Source of the DNA: a virus
Lineage: Duplodnaviria; Heunggongvirae; Uroviricota; Caudoviricetes
Direction: 5' to 3' (one strand)
IMG/VR virus record: IMGVR_UViG_2585427750_000025
Coordinates: 1 to 16,353 of that record
Length of the DNA: 16,353 bases
In this document: positions 1 through 10,983 of the stretch, piece by piece
Position numbering within the stretch: position 1 is the stretch's first letter
Layout of the letters: each line of letters starts with the position of its first letter
The notes under the pieces: model-generated
What the model was told of the DNA's origin: nothing
The model's input: the letters and a program-made list of their open reading frames with translations, nothing else
Databases searched by the model: none
Made by a program: the position numbers and the translations under genes

Positions 1-1248
1 ATGGCACTGAATATTCCATTCAGAAATGCGTACTATCGTTTTGCATCCAGTTACTCATTTCTCTTTTTTATTTCCTGGTCGCTGTGGTGGTCGTTATACG
101 CTATTTGGCTGAAAGGACATCTAGGGTTGACAGGGACGGAATTAGGTACACTTTATTCGGTCAACCAGTTTACCAGCATTCTATTTATGATGTTCTACGG
201 CATCGTTCAGGATAAACTCGGTCTGAAGAAACCGCTCATCTGGTGTATGAGTTTCATCCTGGTCTTGACCGGACCGTTTATGATTTACGTTTATGAACCG
301 TTACTGCAAAGCAATTTTTCTGTAGGTCTAATTCTGGGGGCGCTATTTTTTGGCTTGGGGTATCTGGCGGGATGCGGTTTGCTTGATAGCTTCACCGAAA
401 AAATGGCGCGAAATTTTCATTTCGAATATGGAACAGCGCGCGCCTGGGGATCTTTTGGCTATGCTATTGGCGCGTTCTTTGCCGGCATATTTTTTAGTAT
501 CAGTCCCCATATCAACTTCTGGTTGGTCTCGCTATTTGGCGCTGTATTTATGATGATCAACATGCGTTTTAAAGATAAGGATCACCAGTGCGTAGCGGCA
601 GATGCGGGAGGGGTAAAAAAAGAGGATTTTATCGCAGTTTTCAAGGATCGAAACTTCTGGGTTTTCGTCATATTTATTGTGGGGACGTGGTCTTTCTATA
701 ACATTTTTGATCAACAACTTTTTCCTGTCTTTTATGCAGGTTTATTCGAATCACACGATGTAGGAACGCGCCTGTATGGTTATCTCAACTCATTCCAGGT
801 GGTACTCGAAGCGCTGTGCATGGCGATTATTCCTTTCTTTGTGAATCGGGTAGGGCCAAAAAATGCATTACTTATCGGAGTTGTGATTATGGCGTTGCGT
901 ATCCTTTCCTGCGCGCTGTTCGTTAACCCCTGGATTATTTCATTAGTGAAGTTGTTACATGCCATTGAGGTTCCACTTTGTGTCATATCCGTCTTCAAAT
1001 ACAGCGTGGCAAACTTTGATAAGCGCCTGTCGTCGACGATCTTTCTGATTGGTTTTCAAATTGCCAGTTCGCTTGGGATTGTGCTGCTTTCAACGCCGAC
1101 TGGGATACTCTTTGACCACGCAGGCTACCAGACAGTTTTCTTCGCAATTTCGGGTATTGTCTGCCTGATGTTGCTATTTGGCATTTTCTTCTTGAGTAAA
1201 AAACGCGAGCAAATAGTTATGGAAACGCCTGTACCTTCAGCAATATAG
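1..1248 (+). CDS. LacY-family MFS transporter (oligosaccharide:H+ symporter-like), 415 aa
   Basis: ORF starts with ATG at window position 1; hydrophobic multi-helix profile; whole-length resemblance to LacY-type permeases (DKLGLKK, FEYGxAR, GxKNALL motifs). Sampled GC in first 120 nt is 48/120, i.e. AT-rich. Confidence 0.8.
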   Translation: MALNIPFRNAYYRFASSYSFLFFISWSLWWSLYAIWLKGHLGLTGTELGTLYSVNQFTSILFMMFYGIVQDKLGLKKPLIWCMSFILVLTGPFMIYVYEPLLQSNFSVGLILGALFFGLGYLAGCGLLDSFTEKMARNFHFEYGTARAWGSFGYAIGAFFAGIFFSISPHINFWLVSLFGAVFMMINMRFKDKDHQCVAADAGGVKKEDFIAVFKDRNFWVFVIFIVGTWSFYNIFDQQLFPVFYAGLFESHDVGTRLYGYLNSFQVVLEALCMAIIPFFVNRVGPKNALLIGVVIMALRILSCALFVNPWIISLVKLLHAIEVPLCVISVFKYSVANFDKRLSSTIFLIGFQIASSLGIVLLSTPTGILFDHAGYQTVFFAISGIVCLMLLFGIFFLSKKREQIVMETPVPSAI

Positions 1249-1777
1249 ACGTAAACTTTTTCCGGTTGTTGTCGATAGCTCTATATCCCTCAACCGGAAA
1301 ATAATAATAGTAAAATGCTTAGCCCTGCTAATAATCGCCTAATCCAAACGCCTCATTCATGTTCTGGTACAGTCGCTCAAATGTACTTCAGATGCGCGGT
1401 TCGCTGATTTCCAGGACATTGTCGTCATTCAGTGACCTGTCCCGTGTATCACGGTCCTGCGAATTCATCAAGGAATGCATTGCGGAGTGAAGTATCGAGT
1501 CACGCCATATTTCGCTATCAGGATTCTGTGTGATGGTTACATCGCCCGGCTCAGGGCTGTTTAGTCATCAGCGCTTTCTGACAGTGCTGAGATTTCAACC
1601 TGTTGCAGTAAAAATGAGTAGATATAAGGCAAGTGTGCTGCCAAACCCATCTTTTACGGGGTGAAGGTAGATTTCGTTTGAAGGGTATCTGGTGTCCCCT
1701 GCAGACATCTACTTGAAGCGGCAGGGGATTGATTGGAATGGAGTTTTTTAGATGTGAGAAATATTTTACCCGCTATT

Positions 1778-1978
1778 TTACCCATTGGCGCGGCTTAAGA
1801 GCTTATTTTTGAATTCACAATGGTCACGATATAACCATCTTGCTCGCCCGTGGATAACTTTGGCTTTTGGCAGGTCGCCGGACTTAATCCGGTCATAGAT
1901 GAAGGTTTTACCGAAGCCAGTATCGGCCATGATGAATTTCAAATCAACCAGTGAATCAGGTTGTAGTTCGTGTTGCAT
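1778..1978 (-). CDS. AlpA/Xis-family excisionase or DNA-binding regulator, 66 aa
   Basis: Small basic protein with the LKFIxxxTGFxxxxIYxxIKxGxxP HTH signature of AlpA/Xis proteins; ATG at 1978 preceded by GGAGA; leftmost gene of the early-left operon. Confidence 0.6.
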   Translation of the reverse strand: MQHELQPDSLVDLKFIMADTGFGKTFIYDRIKSGDLPKAKVIHGRARWLYRDHCEFKNKLLSRANG

Positions 1979-2020: not shown

Positions 2021-2044
2021 AAGAAAAAGCCGCATTGATGCGGC
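2021..2044 (-). terminator. Putative rho-independent terminator between the accessory genes and xis
   Basis: Plus-strand stem gccgca (2029-2034) / tgcggc (2039-2044) with loop ttga; on the minus strand the stem is followed by TTTTTCTT (plus 2021-2028). Confidence 0.4.
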
Positions 2045-2101: not shown

Positions 2102-2446
2102 TTAGTCCTTGCGTAGCTCGCTGATTCTTCTGTAAGTCTCTGGTGCTTTGTTCCCATACGTCTTCATTTCAGACTTCAACAGAGCAACGAGTGAATCCCA
2201 TTCGTTGAGGATTCCTTTGAATGCCGGAACGCGCTTTGCAACCTTGTCGAATGAATCTCTGATTTCTGGAATCTGCTCAACAAGTGCAACGCATCGTCGG
2301 AAATCGGCTGCGTCATGTGGAGCACCGAAGCTATGACCATAGATATTCTTTTTCAGTCCACATGCGATTGAGGCAAGAGTTGCGCTACTGATGCCTACAT
2401 CGCCAGTCGATTGCAATTTCAAAACCTTCATAGCCAAATCTGACAT
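2102..2446 (-). CDS. Hypothetical phage protein, 114 aa
   Basis: Intact ORF, ATG at 2446 preceded by GGAG about 8 nt upstream; no family recognised. Confidence 0.5.
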   Translation of the reverse strand: MSDLAMKVLKLQSTGDVGISSATLASIACGLKKNIYGHSFGAPHDAADFRRCVALVEQIPEIRDSFDKVAKRVPAFKGILNEWDSLVALLKSEMKTYGNKAPETYRRISELRKD

Positions 2447-2526
2447 TTCTTGTCTCCATAAAACAAAACTCGCCGTAGCGAGTTCAGATAAAAGAAAACC
2501 ATCAATTGGTTAGGGTTTTTGTAATT

Positions 2527-2718
2527 CTACGAATTATGTTGTTTTTTAGCTTCAGCTTTCCATTCATCAAAGGCAGTGTCTTTGTTCATGGTGCTGATAT
2601 TGATCTTACGGTCAATATCATATACACGCCACTCACCGTTAGGCCTCTCTTCGCATCTAACTAAGTATGAATTGCCATTAATATCTATGCGTCTGTCTAT
2701 TTGCATGAACATTTTCAA
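2527..2718 (-). CDS. Hypothetical small protein, 63 aa (TTG start; alternative ATG at 2712)
   Basis: ORF begins with TTG at 2718, AGAGGA 8 nt upstream; AT-rich upstream region with a TATAAT-like hexamer. Confidence 0.4.
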   Translation of the reverse strand: MKMFMQIDRRIDINGNSYLVRCEERPNGEWRVYDIDRKINISTMNKDTAFDEWKAEAKKQHNS

Positions 2719-2781
2719 TTTTCGAATCCTCTTTAATATGCATTTTTTTTGCTATTTCAGTAGTTTACTATTGATGAGGCG

Positions 2782-2787
2782 TTATTA
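2782..2787 (-). promoter_or_regulatory. Candidate internal -10 element (TATAAT on minus strand) in AT-rich intergenic region
   Basis: Minus strand reads gtgtgTATAATaacg; only a weak -35 candidate at non-ideal spacing, so low confidence. Confidence 0.25.
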
Positions 2788-2831
2788 TACACACTTCATT
2801 AATGCAAGCATCTTTATGCTATGCTACTAAT

Positions 2832-3113
2832 TTAGCAATTGATATTCACCTTTATCGCGAACACCTTTACCGGTTTATCGCCGAAGTGGGGATGTGTGAT
2901 TGTCTTGATTTCATATCCGTCATACGGAACATCAATTCTGCGACTGAAGTCGTCGCGCTTCGGATATCCCTTTGTGATAATCAGGCGGTCATACTCCCGG
3001 AACATAATTCGCTTATTCCAGTAGTCATTACACAAGCGATACTCTTCCGTTTTCTCCCCGCGAATCATGGCATCGAAGTATTCACCTTTGACGGCAAGTT
3101 GCAGGTTAGCCAC
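2832..3113 (-). CDS. ASCH/DUF3850-like small protein, 93 aa
   Basis: N-terminal pattern (LQLAVKGEYFDAMIRGEKTEEYRLCND) resembles the ASCH-fold DUF3850 family common in phage accessory regions; assignment from recall only. Confidence 0.45.
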   Translation of the reverse strand: MANLQLAVKGEYFDAMIRGEKTEEYRLCNDYWNKRIMFREYDRLIITKGYPKRDDFSRRIDVPYDGYEIKTITHPHFGDKPVKVFAIKVNINC

Positions 3114-3393
3114 GACCTTCCTCCTTTGGCTTGTGAATTTGTATCGTCATGCCGCTTTGAGTGGTGACTACAATGACAGAACCAGGCTGAAGGCTGTTAA
3201 GATTGAATGCTTCGTAAAACGAATCCAATGCCAGTGCTTTTTTATTCTTTCGGTTCCACCAACGCCATCCCTTGCTACAGGCTACACTGACAATCCACTG
3301 TCCACTCCTGTAAGCCATATAAAACCAGATGAGCAAAACCTGAAGGAATGCTATCCAGTCAATGATCGTATATTTCGCGAAGGAGTCCATCAC
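3106..3393 (-). CDS. Hypothetical protein with N-terminal hydrophobic segment, 95 aa
   Basis: ATG at 3393 preceded by GGAGGTG (5 nt spacer); start overlaps the stop of the upstream Lar-like gene (ATGA); hydrophobic stretch IIDWIAFLQVLLIWFYMAY. Confidence 0.55.
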   Translation of the reverse strand: MMDSFAKYTIIDWIAFLQVLLIWFYMAYRSGQWIVSVACSKGWRWWNRKNKKALALDSFYEAFNLNSLQPGSVIVVTTQSGMTIQIHKPKEEGRG

Positions 3394-3686
3394 TTCACCT
3401 CCTGCGGAGTAGCCTTTACAAGCACTGGTGTAAATCCATCTTCATTAAGGTTATGAATATAGACTTCTGTTCTCCTGCGCTCTTCAACGTTTAATATTGT
3501 TTCTGGATCATAAACCCATACTTTCATTCGACTATTCCATGAAGAAATCGCTTCAGATTTAGTTCGTTTTTCTGGTCCTTGGGCACCACATTTGCATGAC
3601 ACATAGCACATTTTCCCTCTGATACTGAATGAGTATCCGATGTTAAGCACAGTGGAACCACAGAATGGGCAGCGATATAGATTCAT
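3390..3686 (-). CDS. Lar-family restriction-alleviation-like protein with C-terminal extension, 98 aa
   Basis: N-terminal zinc-ribbon pattern CPFCG ... CxC ... AIxxWNSR typical of the Lar family; AGGTGG RBS upstream of ATG at 3686. Confidence 0.55.
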   Translation of the reverse strand: MNLYRCPFCGSTVLNIGYSFSIRGKMCYVSCKCGAQGPEKRTKSEAISSWNSRMKVWVYDPETILNVEERRRTEVYIHNLNEDGFTPVLVKATPQEVK

Positions 3687-4303
3687 AAATCATCCACCTT
3701 AGGCGCAGCTGAGACAGCAACATTCCAGAACTCAGAAAACATATTGTATGCACCAGATAGATTGGAAGTGGCATACCCTCCAAGCTCACTTCTAATCTGA
3801 ACGGCTCTCATCATTTCCGGGGTTAACTCCTTCGGCACCATAACCCAACCATCCGGAGTTACCGGAGAGTTGCCGGGTTCTTTAATGTGCAAGCGAGGCT
3901 CACCATCTTTTGGCTCAGGCCACTGGCGCTCCATGTTGATCTTCAATTTATCTTCCATAGCAGCGGTAATTTCAGCATCGCTGATGCCAGCACGGCGCTG
4001 TGCATCCCACAACAGAAACTGCATATCAGCCCACTCGCTAAGATCGTCTGGTTCGGCTGCGGCTTCCAGTGCCTCTTTTGAGAGATGTTTCAGCGGACCA
4101 ATGGGGCCAACGCAGCCAAATGTGGAGTCAGACCATTTGGCATGCTCGTGGCGAATCTGTTCGCGTTCCAGTGATGCCAGTGCGATACGCAGGGCATCCA
4201 GGATATTCCCCTGGTAATCATCAAGCCCGAAAGGAAGCTCATCACGAACGCTTTCATAATCGTTGATAGCCTGCTGCAGCCATTCTCTTGTGATAGTGCT
4301 CAT
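3683..4303 (-). CDS. Hypothetical phage protein, 206 aa (possibly DUF550 / MazG-like N-terminal domain)
   Basis: Strong RBS AAGGAGAGG before ATG at 4303; ATGA overlap with upstream gene; domain assignment tentative. Confidence 0.5.
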   Translation of the reverse strand: MSTITREWLQQAINDYESVRDELPFGLDDYQGNILDALRIALASLEREQIRHEHAKWSDSTFGCVGPIGPLKHLSKEALEAAAEPDDLSEWADMQFLLWDAQRRAGISDAEITAAMEDKLKINMERQWPEPKDGEPRLHIKEPGNSPVTPDGWVMVPKELTPEMMRAVQIRSELGGYATSNLSGAYNMFSEFWNVAVSAAPKVDDL

Positions 4304-4926
4304 GATGCCTCTCCTTTACCTGCTTCGGTGACGTTTATTCCAGCGTTGTGCAGTGCCTCAAGAACCTGATGCTGCCTGTAAACCATTTCAGTGTGGTAAG
4401 GCTCGTCAAAATCGACGCGATGCAACATGCTATAGCATTGCGGAAGCACAACCTCCCGCAACTCCAGCTCAGCAATGCGCTTCTCTGCGGCTTCCAGCTT
4501 CTCGCGCATATCGTCAACGTACTCGACCAGAGAACCGCCAGCAGGAATTTCGCACTCCTCGACCAGTTGGAAGTAGATATCAGCTGCGGCCCGTGTGTTG
4601 CTATGCCTAGCGTCGCCCATCTCACCTTCACGAAGAGCATCGCGTTCGGCGGTAAGATTGGCTATTTTGCTGTCTTTGCCTTCCAGCTCAACGCGCAGCT
4701 TCCCTACCGTTAGCGCAATTTCCTCGTTCTCCTGGTCACGGCGTTTGATGTATTGCTGGTTTCTTTCCAGTTCATCCAACAATGCCAGCGCGATATCTGG
4801 CGAAAAGTGCTTCATAAAATCGTTAAGCGCATTAATTCGCTGATCGAAAGGCATTACAGGTGCTTCACCAGCAATTTTTGTTTTTTCAGCGATTTCACGA
4901 AGCTTTTGATAATCAATCTTGCTCAC
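4300..4926 (-). CDS. Ead/Ea22-like family protein, 208 aa (GTG start)
   Basis: N-terminus MSKIDYQKLREIAEK and coiled-coil-like middle resemble lambda Ea22-like proteins; GTG at 4926 preceded by AAGGAGG (6 nt spacer). Confidence 0.6.
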   Translation of the reverse strand: MSKIDYQKLREIAEKTKIAGEAPVMPFDQRINALNDFMKHFSPDIALALLDELERNQQYIKRRDQENEEIALTVGKLRVELEGKDSKIANLTAERDALREGEMGDARHSNTRAAADIYFQLVEECEIPAGGSLVEYVDDMREKLEAAEKRIAELELREVVLPQCYSMLHRVDFDEPYHTEMVYRQHQVLEALHNAGINVTEAGKGEAS

Positions 4927-5060
4927 TGGTTGCCTCCTTTGCGAAGCTGGTTGGCGAACAAACGTACACTAGACGCTTCACTGCGTAGAAACTTAACGGC
5001 ATAATCAAAACCACCTCGTTCTGCGTCGTCTGCTCCGTTGTCGAGGTTATCTGCGTACAT
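4923..5060 (-). CDS. Small hypothetical ORF, 45 aa (internal ATG of the 92-aa track ORF)
   Basis: ATG at 5060 lies 14 nt inside the end of the upstream gene; its TGA stop overlaps the GTG start of the Ea22-like gene (GTGA). Fits the coupling pattern of the operon but is short. Confidence 0.3.
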   Translation of the reverse strand: MYADNLDNGADDAERGGFDYAVKFLRSEASSVRLFANQLRKGGNQ

Positions 5061-5406
5061 CTCTACCCCCCTGCGCCCGTACTTCAGCCAGGAAAGCATC
5101 GGTGGCTGGTGTTTCAACACGGATGCTGTCGCGCAAGATGAAAAATGCATCAAGCATTCCAGTCTCCGGCACTTCATCCTGATGCTTCTCATACGCATCA
5201 AGAGCCTTCATCATCTCAGGTCCGAATGGTTGAGGGTGCGCAGCCTTCAGCCCCGCATTCTCCGCCGCCAGCGCCGCGCACTTGGCCTCCGCTTCAGCAA
5301 ATTTACGCACCAGATATTCAGCGTTTGTTTCGTTAACCTTTAAATCACTTGGGATGCATTTACCTTTCAGAAAACCATCCATCTCAATTAGTGTCATTTG
5401 TTTCAT
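5047..5406 (-). CDS. Hypothetical phage protein, 119 aa
   Basis: Intact ORF, ATG at 5406 overlapping the stop of the upstream 54-aa ORF (ATGA). Confidence 0.5.
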
Positions 5407-5567
5407 TTCTTCCCACTCCGCAACATCGCATTCAGATATTTGTTGTCATTAACAGAACCGAAACTATTTCTCTTAAGCAATTCCTCTCTCGATGGCATTG
5501 GCTTTACGCGTTGGCGAATAATCATTTCTGCCGGAAGAATGCCGGGATTGTATGCAAGTCCTCTCAT
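5403..5567 (-). CDS. Small hypothetical ORF, 54 aa (below the ORF-track length cutoff)
   Basis: Hand translation: [54 protein letters not shown]; GGAGAG RBS upstream; ATGA overlaps at both ends exactly fill the gap between flanking genes. Confidence 0.35.
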
Positions 5568-5854
5568 GATTTACTCTCCACGAACTGGTCAACAGCCATG
5601 CTAAGTGACACACCTAAAGTCTCGATATGTTGCTGAATATCCTGTAGCGTCTGCGCCTGAGATAACAGGATTTCACGGTTGCATAACTCTTTAACCAGAT
5701 GCTCAAACTTGCTGTAATAACCGATACGGCTTAGTGTTTCTTTCCCTGCATTCTCGCCTTCTTTGATAATTCCTCTTTCGCTAAGAATCAGATCGTGTTT
5801 TGTTCCGGTAATAACGTATTTTCCGAGGTTGATGTTTAGCTTCATTGTTTTCAT
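5564..5854 (-). CDS. Hypothetical phage protein, 96 aa (start moved to internal ATG)
   Basis: ATG at 5854 (MKTMKLNIN...) is preceded by GAGGAA with 6-nt spacer and lies 11 nt after the stop of the upstream gene; the longer 147-aa track ORF would overlap that gene. Confidence 0.5.
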
Positions 5855-5864
5855 TGTTAATTCC

Positions 5865-6161
5865 TCAGTCATTACTGATAGCGCCATAGCGTGAGCGGTA
5901 ATTACGCAGGCGCGGGTCGATATATTCAGGGAAGTGGGTATATGTGGCTTTGCGGAATGGTCGGATTGATGTCTGGTAAATTCGCTCGCGTTCTTCTTTC
6001 TCTGCAAGCCATATGCAGTGGCGAAACTCCTTTTCCTCTTTCGTTTCCTGCGGTAGAGACATTATCCGATCGTAGTTTTTTCTGAATTTATCCAGCACCT
6101 CCGATACGGAATTGCCGGAACAGCGGCGCGCGTCGTCCGCACCATATAGAGGCGCTGGCAT
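5865..6161 (-). CDS. Hypothetical phage protein, 98 aa
   Basis: ATG at 6161 preceded by AGGAGA (5 nt spacer), 16 nt downstream of the exonuclease stop. Confidence 0.5.
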   Translation of the reverse strand: MPAPLYGADDARRCSGNSVSEVLDKFRKNYDRIMSLPQETKEEKEFRHCIWLAEKEERERIYQTSIRPFRKATYTHFPEYIDPRLRNYRSRYGAISND

Positions 6162-6177: not shown

Positions 6178-6726
6178 TTATTTAGCTAACTTTTTCCAGA
6201 TCGCTGAAACGTATTTGGCTTGGTGGATTGCATCATCAAGCGCGTTGTGGCGAGTTCCTTTGAATGGCATATCTCGCTTAGGGTCTAATCCTATTGCCTT
6301 CCCAAGTTCGACGATTGTTCTTACGTCGCGGTCATTCCACCACTGCCACGGAACTGGCTGCCCTGTCAGCGAATAAGTGTTGCGGAGAATAACGCAGTCA
6401 AATGATGCTCCATTCCCCCAAACCTGAACGAGTTTGTGGTTGGCGTTCTTTATGATGAATTCAGATAACCATGAAAGAGCCGTTGAAAGCTCTTGAGTGT
6501 TGCTGGTTAGCGATTTTCTGGCTTCTTCACTCTGTTCCATCCACCATAAAATCGTTGAAGCGTCAGGACGCGCCCGATATCGCATTGATGACTCAAGCGA
6601 GATATTTACCGAGAACTCTTCTCCTGTTTCTCCGGTATTCGGGTCAAAGAATACCGCCCCAATAGAAATAACTGGTGCGTATGGCCCGTTGCCCATTGTT
6701 TCAAGGTCAACCATCAAGTGATTCAT
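6178..6726 (-). CDS. DnaQ-like (DEDDh) 3'-5' exonuclease, 182 aa
   Basis: Exo motif I (MVDLETMG) and Exo III-like H-x4-D (HNALDDAIH) with intervening acidic residues; AAGGA RBS; immediately downstream of ssb. Confidence 0.7.
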   Translation of the reverse strand: MNHLMVDLETMGNGPYAPVISIGAVFFDPNTGETGEEFSVNISLESSMRYRARPDASTILWWMEQSEEARKSLTSNTQELSTALSWLSEFIIKNANHKLVQVWGNGASFDCVILRNTYSLTGQPVPWQWWNDRDVRTIVELGKAIGLDPKRDMPFKGTRHNALDDAIHQAKYVSAIWKKLAK

Positions 6727-8939: not shown

Positions 8940-9266
8940 TCAAATAAGTGGTTTGCTGCCTAATTTCATTTTCTGGCGACCAACACAAGTCACACCCATT
9001 TCACTGCGTGGCTTGCTGTACCATGTGCGCTGATTCTTGCGCTCAATACGTTGCAGGTTGCTTTCAATCTGTTCGTGGTATTCAGCCAGCGCCGTAAGGT
9101 CTATCGGATTCAGTGCGCTTTCTACTCGTGATTTCGGTTTGCGATTCAGCGAGAGAATAGGGCGGTTAACTGGCTTTGCGCTTACCCCAACCAACAGGGG
9201 ATTTGCTGCTTTCCATTGAGCCTGTTTTTCTGCGCGACGTTCGCGGCGGCGTGTTTGTGCATCCAT
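8940..9266 (-). CDS. N: Antitermination protein N (lambda-type), 108 aa
   Basis: Product from internal ATG at 9266 begins MDAQTRRRERRAEKQAQWKAANPLLVGVSAKPVNRPILSLNRKPKSRVESALNPIDLT, matching lambda N including the arginine-rich boxB-binding motif. Confidence 0.9.
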   Translation of the reverse strand: MDAQTRRRERRAEKQAQWKAANPLLVGVSAKPVNRPILSLNRKPKSRVESALNPIDLTALAEYHEQIESNLQRIERKNQRTWYSKPRSEMGVTCVGRQKMKLGSKPLI

Positions 9267-9438
9267 CTGGATTCTCCTGTCAGTTAGCTTTGGTGGTGTG
9301 GTAGGTGGGAGACCCATTTCGACCTGCTTCGGCCGACTTCAATTCGGCAATAGTTCCGCAGGCCTCGCCGCTTTACGTGCGACATATTCCCATCCATGAA
9401 CCCTTCACCACACCCCAAAGCCTTCTGCTTTGAATGCT

Positions 9439-9630: not shown

Positions 9631-10983
<1,353 letters not shown>

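Follow-up and report, generated by a model that had tools for sequence, protein, structure and literature searches.

The stretch between positions 2102 and 6161 of our window, a 16,353-nucleotide piece of viral DNA, very probably belongs to the leftward early (pL) operon of a lambdoid prophage of the P22/HK620/Sf6 type, of which it forms the distal part, with 11 genes on the minus strand. It is a variable accessory region of an ordinary and well-known type (the 'exo-xis' of lambda, the 'ea' of P22), and not a new kind of system. The whole window is 100% identical to contig JOQD01000028.1 of E. coli 3-475-03_S3_C1, where the prophage occupies the argW/dsdC-csc site. As originally predicted, we find here an early-left accessory region extending from exonuclease to xis: a recombination module (a Rad52-like protein, SSB and a DEDDh 3'-5' exonuclease) flanks one side and an excisionase of the TorI/KplE1 type the other, and everything from the Rad52-like gene and SSB through the 3'-5' exonuclease and the gene chain to torI/xis lies on the minus strand. 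The window also encodes an N-type antiterminator (8940-9317, PF11438) and a CI-type repressor (10032-10664, Peptidase_S24 plus HTH), with CII, a DnaB-type helicase, NinB and NinX to the right. Twelve minus-strand ORFs fill the region, as expected from the 'about twelve small genes' of the original prediction, but the true genes are 11, because the ORF at 4923..5060 belongs, out of frame, to the gene starting at 5406, as its C-terminus. The gene order is abc2, DUF5405, DUF2737, eaE-like (frameshifted), ead/ea22-like, eaA-type with a DUF550/MazZ domain, lar-like, DUF4752, ASCH-like and the genes of a 63-aa and a 114-aa protein.

The run of short ORFs on the minus strand is genuine and far above chance expectation. 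Counting the [AG]TGA junctions between pairs of ORFs of 45 aa or more, the minus strand holds seven (six between real genes and one spurious) and the plus strand none, whereas 1000 dinucleotide-preserving shuffles gave 0-3 (mean ~0.25). The ATGA start/stop overlaps at 3683-3686, 4300-4303, 5403-5406 and 5564-5567 and the GTGA overlap at 4923-4926 are exactly as previously claimed; another ATGA, placed at 3390-3393, was misread, the plus strand being TCAC (that is, GTGA) in a local GTGATG sequence with a 1-nt TGATG overlap as the alternative. An 8-nt overlap (GTGGCTAA, 3106-3113) joins the end of the DUF4752 gene to the start of the ASCH-like gene. From 6161 to 2832 neighbouring genes overlap or stand at most 10 nt apart. 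The chain as a whole is interrupted by gaps of 10 nt (5855-5864), 113 nt (2719-2831) and 80 nt (2447-2526, with a terminator). All the starts have a Shine-Dalgarno match (-5.8 to -11.6 kcal/mol, versus -2.2 ± 2.7 for other ATG/GTG codons of the region), which between 6161 and 2832 falls inside the final codons of the preceding gene and therefore shapes upstream protein tails such as ...KGGNQ, ...GKGEAS, ...PQEVK and ...KEEGRG. Altogether, overlap junctions, shuffles and Shine-Dalgarno sites make up an architecture that fits the tight translational coupling proposed for these genes.

The chain opens with abc2 (5865..6161), which follows the exonuclease gene after 16 nt and encodes anti-RecBCD protein 2 (98 aa; PF11043, E=4e-61, full length 1-97/97; phrog_656 'abc2 anti-RecBCD', 2e-56) behind an AGGAG Shine-Dalgarno of -7.4 kcal/mol. 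As a member of its family it is predicted to modify RecBCD, and Abc2 has been employed as a control whose counter-defence role was known (bioRxiv 10.1101/2023.04.06.535777). The DUF5405 protein that follows (5564..5854; PF17399, 25.7 bits, cut-off 21.6; phrog_154, 2.8e-32) is 96 aa long, with its start at the ATG of position 5854; the label 'replication initiation protein' of phrog_154 is inherited annotation for a putative function. A mechanical ORF with a TTG start (5564..6007) was rejected as too long, the gene call of the source contig also being 96 aa. The next ORF (5403..5567), earlier suggested as a likely gene, is a real one and encodes a 54-aa DUF2737 protein (PF10930, 4.9e-31, 1-53/53; phrog_1117, 5.8e-38); both its ends lie in ATGA overlaps and it is annotated in many phages.

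The eaE-like gene (phrog_614, 4923..5406) carries a +1 frameshift and appears as two ORFs of 119 aa (5047..5406) and 45 aa (4923..5060), split in the alignment by a 1-nt insertion at a G6 homopolymer (5066..5071, C6 on the plus strand). Two near-identical E. coli prophages have the same DNA minus one G and a single 160-aa ORF, and G5 occurs in 38/38 IMG/VR contigs with flanking sequence, which makes 40/40 relatives (38 IMG/VR contigs and 2 E. coli genomes) with G5 and one intact ORF, most commonly of 160 aa (19 of the 38 contigs and both E. coli genomes). Once conceptually repaired, the protein covers positions 27-211 of 214 of phrog_614 (E=7.7e-51), compared to positions 27-141 only for the 119-aa fragment. 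The second suggested small gene, 4923..5060, does not survive this comparison, which identifies the 45-aa ORF as a by-product of an apparently lineage-specific 1-nt insertion rather than a gene. A sequencing or assembly error at G6, with an intact eaE-like gene in the real strain, is unlikely: miscounted homopolymers are a frequent artefact and G6 is confined to this strain, but the GenBank contig shares it with an independent Logan assembly, SRR1186626, identical over 5843 nt with the G6 included, and errors of the Illumina type would be unusual in a run of only 6 nt. Both assemblies probably derive from the same strain. That 4923..5060 could be a genuine independent small gene, coupled through a 14-nt upstream overlap and the downstream GTGA overlap, is very doubtful, as the same residues are the last 45 of the longer protein in all 40 relatives, its PHROG alignment adjoins that of the upstream fragment (phrog_492 positions 138-177 after 62-137) and its ATG is an internal Met of the longer protein; this ATG nevertheless sits behind a strong SD-like G-run (-11.5 kcal/mol), and the ORF was called by gene callers on the source contig, so a translated peptide might exist in this strain. 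Most improbable of all is programmed recoding at G6, through a +1 shift of the ribosome or slippage during transcription, to give both a 119-aa and a 160-aa product, a view favoured by the capacity of homopolymer runs to support slippage, by the overlap of the two frames coinciding exactly with the run and by the G6 being reproduced in two assemblies, but opposed by the single frame and G5 of 40/40 relatives, where the two-frame layout is not conserved, by the probable common strain of the assemblies and by G6 being short for transcriptional slippage.

Downstream of the eaE-like gene disrupted by the insertion, the Ead/Ea22-like protein (4300..4926, 208 aa, GTG start) confirms the earlier assignment (PF13935, 6e-19). 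It is built from an Ea22 N-terminus plus coiled coil and a non-lambda C-terminal domain: identity to lambda Ea22 reaches 57% over residues 1-88 and the remainder is unrelated. In strain PCP07083 the N-terminal 154 residues are found again, fused to a DUF551 C-terminus. Such a mosaic architecture has been described before for Ea22 (PMC10834534), which is pro-lysogenic (PMC7093339, PMC10834534), and proteins of this family may accordingly be expected to bias the phage towards lysogeny.

The possible DUF550 protein of the original prediction has also found support in the EaA-type modular protein (3683..4303, 206 aa; PF04447, 3.4e-42, 1-96/97), which comprises an N-terminal module (~1-45), a DUF550/MazZ-type dATP/dGTP pyrophosphohydrolase domain (50-145, positions 3869-4156) and a C-terminal module (~144-206). 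The outer modules are common to ISHS7 and HF4s proteins with other middles, and at least 8000 homologues were found, several of them named 'Eaa' or 'DUF550 domain-containing'. The literature describes DUF550 as a pyrophosphohydrolase of dATP and dGTP (PMC12884076; PMC8342488), and annotation at the family level suggests that the domain hydrolyses dATP/dGTP to monophosphates. Like the MazZ/DUF550 proteins of Z-genome (2-aminoadenine) phages, it has the PF04447 domain (matched here with 143 bits). When aligned to S-2L MazZ (7ODY), its E77, E80, E90, D93 and R126 face acidic residues and an arginine, where they putatively map to the metal-binding positions and to R83, the acidic metal-binding residues and the transition-state-stabilising arginine being conserved in the alignment. 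On the other hand, similarity to the solved MazZ is only distant (E=0.4), the domain is set here between lambdoid EaA-type modules, and the window lacks the purZ/datZ partner, DUF550 activity being established only in purZ-carrying phages.

The following gene (3390..3686) encodes a Lar-like restriction alleviation protein of 98 aa, of the Cys-rich zinc-ribbon type (TIGR03655, 59.1 bits versus 39.6; PF14354, 35.2 versus 28.6; phrog_599), with cysteines in its translation at C6-x2-C9, C27 and C31-x-C33. Lar and Ral enhance methyltransferase activity so that DNA is protected from type I restriction (PMC2993543), and family annotation suggests that the Lar-like protein likewise alleviates it. Like Lar of the Rac prophage, it passes the TIGR03655 and PF14354 cut-offs and has a Cys-rich N-terminal zinc-ribbon region of ~55 aa, but shows an extra C-terminal extension of ~44 aa. 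The homologue in strain ISHS7 is a truncated pseudogene. The DUF4752 protein (3106..3393; PF15944, 2.8e-36; phrog_667), with a hydrophobic N-terminal segment, has two candidate starts, an ATG at 3390 (94 aa) and a GTG at 3393 (95 aa); the ATG, giving a 1-nt overlap with the lar-like gene, is favoured because phrog_667 aligns from residue 2, the contig call is 94 aa and the annotated homologue of phage HF4s agrees. For the 93-aa protein at 2832..3113 (GTG start; phrog_625, 1.9e-50) homologues are named 'ASCH domain-containing' in the source databases, but the proposed ASCH/DUF3850-like assignment stays below threshold: Pfam ASCH is matched with 14.3 bits (cut-off 21.2), weak matches occur in 8/18 homologues and the structure model is uninformative. 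The last two genes encode a small protein (2527..2718) of 63 aa (TTG start) or 61 aa (ATG start, 2712) (phrog_16329, 8.5e-49, 1-63/63), preceded by the AT-rich 113-nt gap, with GC falling to 0.35 at this locus, and an all-alpha protein of 114 aa (2102..2446), the last gene before the excisionase.

A scan for minus-strand terminators detected none within 6161-2832; the only intrinsic-terminator-like structures lie before and after the last gene, as a hairpin followed by a T-run (2466..2485) and a second hairpin, GCCGCATCAATGCGGC followed by TTTTT (2029..2044), between the 114-aa gene and torI/xis. The first hairpin belongs to a ~50-bp cassette of terminator, Shine-Dalgarno and ATG (2444-2500) conserved with phage lambda, with 89-93% identity to lambda 29283-29339, ISHS7 and HF4s, where the downstream genes differ. 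A promoter scan, too crude to exclude internal promoters, gave 4 sites against 8.8 expected and no promoter-like site ahead of the chain. From lambda and P22 biology, we infer that after induction or infection the block would be read as a single N-antiterminated pL transcript, ribosomes ending on one cistron probably re-initiating on the next. The two distal genes could be expressed separately, in a moron-like way, because the AT-rich gap and a terminator precede them.

The original statement that most genes have no recognisable family was too strong, as seven of the 11 score above curated Pfam or NCBIfam cut-offs and 11/11 are placed in PHROG families, most of these without known function. 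Two proteins of the chain are PHROG-only. The emphasis on host takeover and counter-defence, which draws on the family labels of two of the 11 genes (Abc2 and Lar-like), likewise appears overstated, and its possible extension to DUF550 draws on biochemistry that only Z-genome phages are known to display. We also consider it quite improbable that the block is mainly a lysogen-expressed 'moron' or defence island guarding the host from other phages, instead of an early lytic accessory operon. Prophage accessory loci frequently bear defence genes, and the distal genes (2527-2718 and 2102-2446) are set apart by the AT-rich gap and terminators; against this, PADLOC defence-system models gave no meaningful match in 10 of the 11 genes (all but abc2, with eaE-like as the repaired 160-aa sequence), the single hit being a marginal similarity between PbeC and the coiled coil of the Ea22-like protein (E=0.001), the genes share the orientation of the pL recombination module and adjoin it, no promoter-like site preceding the chain, and the members of known function, Abc2 and Lar, act for the phage.

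The accessory region is moreover a patchwork. Among phages and complete E. coli no record covers at least 80% of the region, the best phage coverage being 48%, and pieces at 90-99% identity occur in hundreds of records. Of 380 homology breakpoints, 194 lie no more than 30 nt from a gene boundary, versus 79 ± 8 at random (maximum 104 in 1000 trials), in a sample that is biased because loci were chosen for carrying part of the region; several are intragenic (e.g., 5100-5125, 5275-5300 and 4775-4925). As read from these alignments, the clustering at gene junctions is classic lambdoid mosaicism. The conserved junction sequences may double as homology patches for recombination, which would explain the different gene cassettes found between the same junctions in relatives.

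The closest known systems are the P22 'ea' region and the Lederbergvirus-type early-left arms of HK620 (hkaA-hkaX), Sf6 and HF4s, which share with our region the position (abc2 to xis), the strand, the start/stop-overlap style, the abc2, DUF2737, EaE, EaD/Ea22-like, EaA, Lar-like, DUF4752 and ASCH-like families and a patchy DNA identity of 93-97%. However, the exact gene combination is found in no record, the EaA slot is DUF550 and not DUF551, the eaE-like gene is frameshifted and the 63-aa and 114-aa pair replaces the 55-aa gene adjoining xis. Compared to the exo-xis region of lambda and Stx phages (orf60a, orf63, orf61, orf73, ea22, ea8.5), the family matches do not include orf60a, orf61, orf63 or ea8.5, the 63-aa gene does not resemble the 55-aa ORF of lambda, Ea22 differs by an unrelated C-terminal domain and Rad52-like/SSB/DEDDh exonuclease/Abc2 stand in place of Exo/Bet/Gam. 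Nevertheless, both occupy the slot between recombination genes and xis and would share the earliest pL transcription, lambda has in common the Ea22 N-terminus with its coiled coil and the terminator/SD cassette, and the 114-aa gene is also found in Stx phages.

The small minus-strand genes found at 2102-6161, between an exonuclease gene and xis, are members of the long-known exo-xis/ea accessory region of lambdoid phages, in the early-left part of their genomes. The E. coli 3-475-03_S3_C1 contig JOQD01000028.1 (GCA_000713895.1) is 100% identical to the window over 8303 nt. The window starts in the csc sucrose locus, with an oligosaccharide MFS transporter at 1-1248, and then enters the prophage from its right attachment side. 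The xis gene (1778-1978, minus strand, 66 aa) is labelled in RefSeq relatives as TorI, the KplE1/CPS-53-type excisionase. This torI-type gene lies ~530 nt from cscB (window 1248-1978), and the right end of the prophage (attR) must fall within 1249-1777. No integrase gene adjoins it; an int at the opposite prophage end is the normal arrangement for integration modules of the KplE1/CPS-53 type. Two relatives (loci L003 and L010) carry the same torI beside dsdC rather than csc. A tRNA scan of the window found no tRNA gene, so the argW attachment tRNA lies outside it, and no RNA family of Rfam was found in the window at gathering thresholds.

To the right of the chain, and all on the minus strand, we find a DEDDh 3'-5' exonuclease (6178-6726; PF16473, Rv2179c-like family), an SSB, a Rad52-like recombinase, cIII and an N-type antiterminator (8940-9317; PF11438), followed by a CI-type repressor (10032-10664) and, beyond it on the plus strand, cII, an O-like initiator, a DnaB-type helicase, NinB and NinX. 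The exonuclease that bounds the chain is thus of the Rv2179c-like DEDDh kind and not a homologue of lambda Exo. Together with Abc2, the Rad52-like protein, the SSB and this exonuclease make up the recombination module, and the Rad52-like gene, SSB, exonuclease, chain and torI/xis share one strand (minus). Such a layout of recombination genes, N and CI therefore makes the chain the distal part of the leftward early operon in a lambdoid prophage of the P22/HK620/Sf6 type. Directly downstream of the repressor, a 158-aa ORF (listed as 9631-10107, minus strand) shares 76 nt with the 3' end of the repressor gene; it lacks a Pfam match and belongs to phrog_2651, a family without a function label, with the match beginning at residue 39, and it occupies the position in which exclusion genes expressed by the lysogen lie, rex of lambda being an example.

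Twelve minus-strand ORFs occupy 2102-6161, in agreement with the original prediction of about twelve small genes, but two of them are halves of a single split gene and the region therefore holds 11 genes, every one with close relatives in sequenced phages. From right to left these are abc2 (5865-6161), DUF5405 (5564-5854), DUF2737 (5403-5567), a frameshifted EaE-like gene (4923-5406), an Ead/Ea22-like gene (4300-4926), an EaA-type gene (3683-4303), a Lar-family gene (3390-3686), DUF4752 (3106-3393), an ASCH-like gene (2832-3113) and the genes of a 63-aa (2527-2718) and a 114-aa protein (2102-2446). Direct reading of the sequence bore out the start/stop overlaps ATGA at 3683-3686, 4300-4303, 5403-5406 and 5564-5567, as well as GTGA at 4923-4926; the sixth, given as ATGA at 3390-3393, had been misread and is GTGA within GTGATG. 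For DUF4752 we favour the ATG at 3390 as the probable start, giving a 1-nt overlap, because the PHROG profile, the gene call of the contig and the annotated HF4s homologue (starting MDSFAKY) agree on it. A further overlap of 8 nt lies at 3106-3113, and the chain is interrupted by gaps of 10 nt (5855-5864), 113 nt (2719-2831, AT-rich with a GC of 0.35) and 80 nt (2447-2526). On the minus strand, seven ATGA or GTGA junctions join ORFs that reach 45 aa or more, and six of these junctions lie between real genes, whereas the plus strand has none; the same count gave 0-3 in 1000 dinucleotide shuffles, so the pattern is not due to chance. Shine-Dalgarno (SD) complementarity ranged from -5.8 to -11.6 kcal/mol over all the starts, against -2.2 +/- 2.7 for other ATG/GTG codons of the region. 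The ORF at 5403-5567, which had been proposed as a likely gene despite falling below the ORF-track cut-off, is a bona fide DUF2737 member (E = 5e-31, 106.8 bits vs a cut-off of 25). Four plus-strand ORFs of 115-129 aa (2802-3167, 3067-3456, 3870-4217 and 4348-4713) were rejected as antisense shadows, since every family match falls on the minus strand and the 4-nt junctions are absent from the plus strand.

The other short ORF proposed as a gene, 4923-5060 (45 aa), turned out to be the remnant of the frameshifted EaE-like gene. This ORF and the one at 5047-5406 (119 aa) match consecutive stretches of one PHROG profile, and the homologue in E. coli ISHS7 is a single protein with the end ...AEVRAQGVEMFADH...QLRKGGNQ. 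The cut comes from a run of six Gs (G6) at 5066-5071, one G more than in the 40 relatives examined. In the near-identical E. coli prophages PCP07083 and STEC346, the sole difference at this point is a GGGGG in place of the GGGGGG of the window, and the product is one 160-aa protein. Once conceptually repaired, the protein matches positions 27-211 of the 214 in phrog_614 (E = 7.7e-51). The best reading is a real, lineage-specific +1 insertion, because the GenBank contig and a Logan assembly made independently of it both show G6. An error of assembly is much less likely as the source of the extra G. Much less likely too is a programmed recoding site, for which one might point to the two-frame layout and the slippery run: neither is conserved, as a pattern scan of IMG/VR found the flanking sequence in 38 contigs, all 38 with G5 and a continuous ORF (most often of 160 aa), the same single frame as in the two E. 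coli prophages.

From 6161 to 2832 a terminator scan found no terminator-like sites, and the SD of each cistron lies within the last codons of the preceding one, so that upstream proteins finish in SD-encoded tails: ...KGGNQ from AAAGGAGGCAACCAGTGA, ...GKGEAS from GGTAAAGGAGAGGCATCATGA, ...PQEVK from CAGGAGGTGAAGTGA and ...KEEGRG from AAAGGAGGAAGGTCGTGGCTAA. Two hairpins resembling intrinsic terminators (2485-2466 and 2044-2029) stand on either side of the last gene. A promoter scan gave 4 sigma-70-like sites vs 8.8 in shuffles, fewer than random and hence uninformative. By analogy with the biology of lambda and P22, a single N-antiterminated transcript from pL would run across the chain, and its cistrons would be coupled through termination and reinitiation.

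The Abc2 protein (anti-RecBCD) matches PF11043 over its full length (1-97/97; 4e-61, 203.6 bits vs a cut-off of 25); Abc2 of P22 binds RecC and modifies the activity of RecBCD. The Lar-family restriction alleviation protein scores 59.1 bits with TIGR03655 (cut-off 39.6), the only match in the NCBIfam search, and 35.2 with PF14354 (cut-off 28.6), and its translation reads as a Cys-rich zinc-ribbon motif (C6xxC9, C27, C31xC33); the activity ascribed to this family is directed against type I (EcoKI-family) restriction. DUF4752 (123.9 bits vs 27) has a hydrophobic N-terminus, and DUF5405 (25.7 bits vs 21.6) is a 96-aa protein from the ATG at 5854, a TTG-started version of 147 aa being rejected as an over-extension. 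The PHROG family of this protein, phrog_154, bears the label 'replication initiation protein', a name that RefSeq also gives to a gene in the corresponding stretch of Sf6 and HK140; on a 96-aa early-left protein it looks like an inherited annotation. A search of the accessible literature found no functional work on DUF2737, DUF4752 or DUF5405. The 63-aa and 114-aa proteins have PHROG matches only, and the latter, all-alpha, gave only noise against PDB sequences. As for the ASCH-like call of the original prediction, it stands as a sub-threshold match limited to residues 6-28 (PF04266, 14.3 bits vs 21.2). Weak PF04266 matches occur in 8 of 18 homologues (best E = 0.002), and a G-E-K-T-E-E-Y-R stretch fits the GxKxxExR motif that we take to be that of ASCH; the protein and its profile found only noise among PDB sequences, and an AlphaFold model from an 18-sequence alignment (pLDDT 53.7) was too poor for a fold search.

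The Ea22-like call held (PF13935, 69.4 bits vs 27), with the N-terminal segment and the coiled coil present. Residues 1-88 are 57% identical to lambda Ea22, and beyond residue 88 no similarity to the lambda-type C-terminal domain of known NMR structure was found. This partial likeness agrees with the published picture of Ea22, in which the N-terminus and coiled coil are constant and the C-terminal domains swappable as CTD variants (PMC10834534). Proteins of this type have been reported as pro-lysogenic rather than anti-defence (PMC7093339, PMC10834534).

A DUF550 protein had been suspected, and the domain is indeed there, in the middle (residues 50-145) of the 206-aa EaA-type protein (PF04447, 3e-42, 143 bits vs 23), a family whose current Pfam name is dATP/dGTP pyrophosphohydrolase. 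In the alignment to the MazZ of phage S-2L (7ODY), residues E77, E80, E90, D93 and R126 face E, E, E, D and R, and would map onto its metal ligands E35, E38, E50 and residue 53 and its key R83 (PMC8342488) if a tag shifts the numbering of the PDB chain by 6 residues. Because these metal-ligand and arginine positions align, the enzyme looks competent, judging from sequence. In contrast with Z-cluster phages, where MazZ comes with purZ and datZ, the domain lacks either partner here: Pfam scans, which covered the majority of the larger ORFs in the 16.3-kb window, found no adenylosuccinate-synthetase-like or DatZ-like protein. The protein is 100% identical to a protein of the source strain, and its homologues number at least 8000, several of them named 'Eaa'; its N-terminal ~45 aa and C-terminal ~60 aa are also present in relatives, where they enclose other middles. 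Several relatives share just one part of the gene, at 97-100% identity: a 30-bp patch (3845-3874, encoding GNSPVTPDGW) whose flanking domains differ among them, and which resembles a recombination linker within the gene, placed between modules of the protein. That this protein is a host-takeover or counter-defence enzyme of a non-Z-DNA phage, with the EaA modules as a scaffold for cargo, seems to us improbable. If true, the DUF550 domain might alter the pools of dATP and dGTP, or break down purine nucleotides that host immunity uses as substrates or signals, and the conserved modules would form a swappable scaffold taking DUF550, DUF551 and other cargo to a common partner.

Among phages that are otherwise related, the region is mosaic and hypervariable. 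In ISHS7 the annotation gives the Lar-family gene as a pseudogene cut short (L001 4254-4355), and the EaA-type protein is built around another middle domain, so decay and module exchange are ongoing in the same slot. In support of a prophage of the P22/HK620/Sf6 type, Megablast retrieved 603 phage records with pieces at 80-99% identity (among them HF4s, HK140, HK022, Sf6, HK620/CUS-3, the mEp phages and many Stx phages), none covering at least 80% of the region, and 5426 complete E. coli genomes likewise shared pieces without reaching that coverage. Of 380 homology breakpoints, 194 lay no more than 30 nt from a gene boundary, vs 79 +/- 8 expected, in a sample that over-represents carriers of the eaE segment. 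The junction sequences themselves are conserved even where the phages differ in the genes on either side. In this regard, a ~50-bp cassette at 2444-2500, composed of a terminator hairpin, a T-run, a GGAG (SD) and an ATG, is 89-93% identical in lambda (29283-29339, or 484-540 of our lambda locus L005), ISHS7 and HF4s, in which the gene that follows it is an unrelated one of 55 aa; its lambda position, flanked by ea8.5 and by the 55-aa ORF that lies upstream of xis, is presumably the tL3 site. This is the classic 'linker' mosaicism of lambdoid phages, and it would explain why overlap-chained small genes persist here, a clean example of SD-bearing junctions that would double as translational-coupling signals and recombination linkers.

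Regarding the host-takeover and counter-defence functions originally proposed, a role in counter-defence is plausible for Abc2 and the Lar-like protein only, at the family level. Silas et al. used Abc2 as a known counter-defence control (bioRxiv 10.1101/2023.04.06.535777). PADLOC defence-system models, run on the ten genes other than abc2 (the eaE-like one as its repaired 160-aa sequence), gave no meaningful match, the sole hit, between PbeC and the coiled coil of the Ea22-like protein, being marginal (E = 0.001). The useful output is a corrected annotation (11 genes instead of 12, one frameshift pseudogene or fragment and one misread overlap) and a list of candidates among widespread early genes for anti-defence screens: the DUF550-EaA fusion, DUF2737, DUF4752, DUF5405 and the 114-aa protein, which is without a solved fold relative. 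As a discovery it carries little weight, the region being a textbook mosaic accessory region that would not surprise a phage specialist. Compared with the exo-xis region of lambda, orf60a, orf61, orf63 and ea8.5 are absent from the chain, with no match to the Pfam models DUF1317 (orf60a) and DUF1382 (orf63) among the eleven proteins; Ea22 is shared in its N-terminal part only, and the 55-aa ORF of lambda is unrelated to the 63-aa gene. BLASTN against that lambda locus matched just the terminator cassette and one segment of ea22. Altogether, the gene set belongs to the P22/HK620 type and not to that of lambda.
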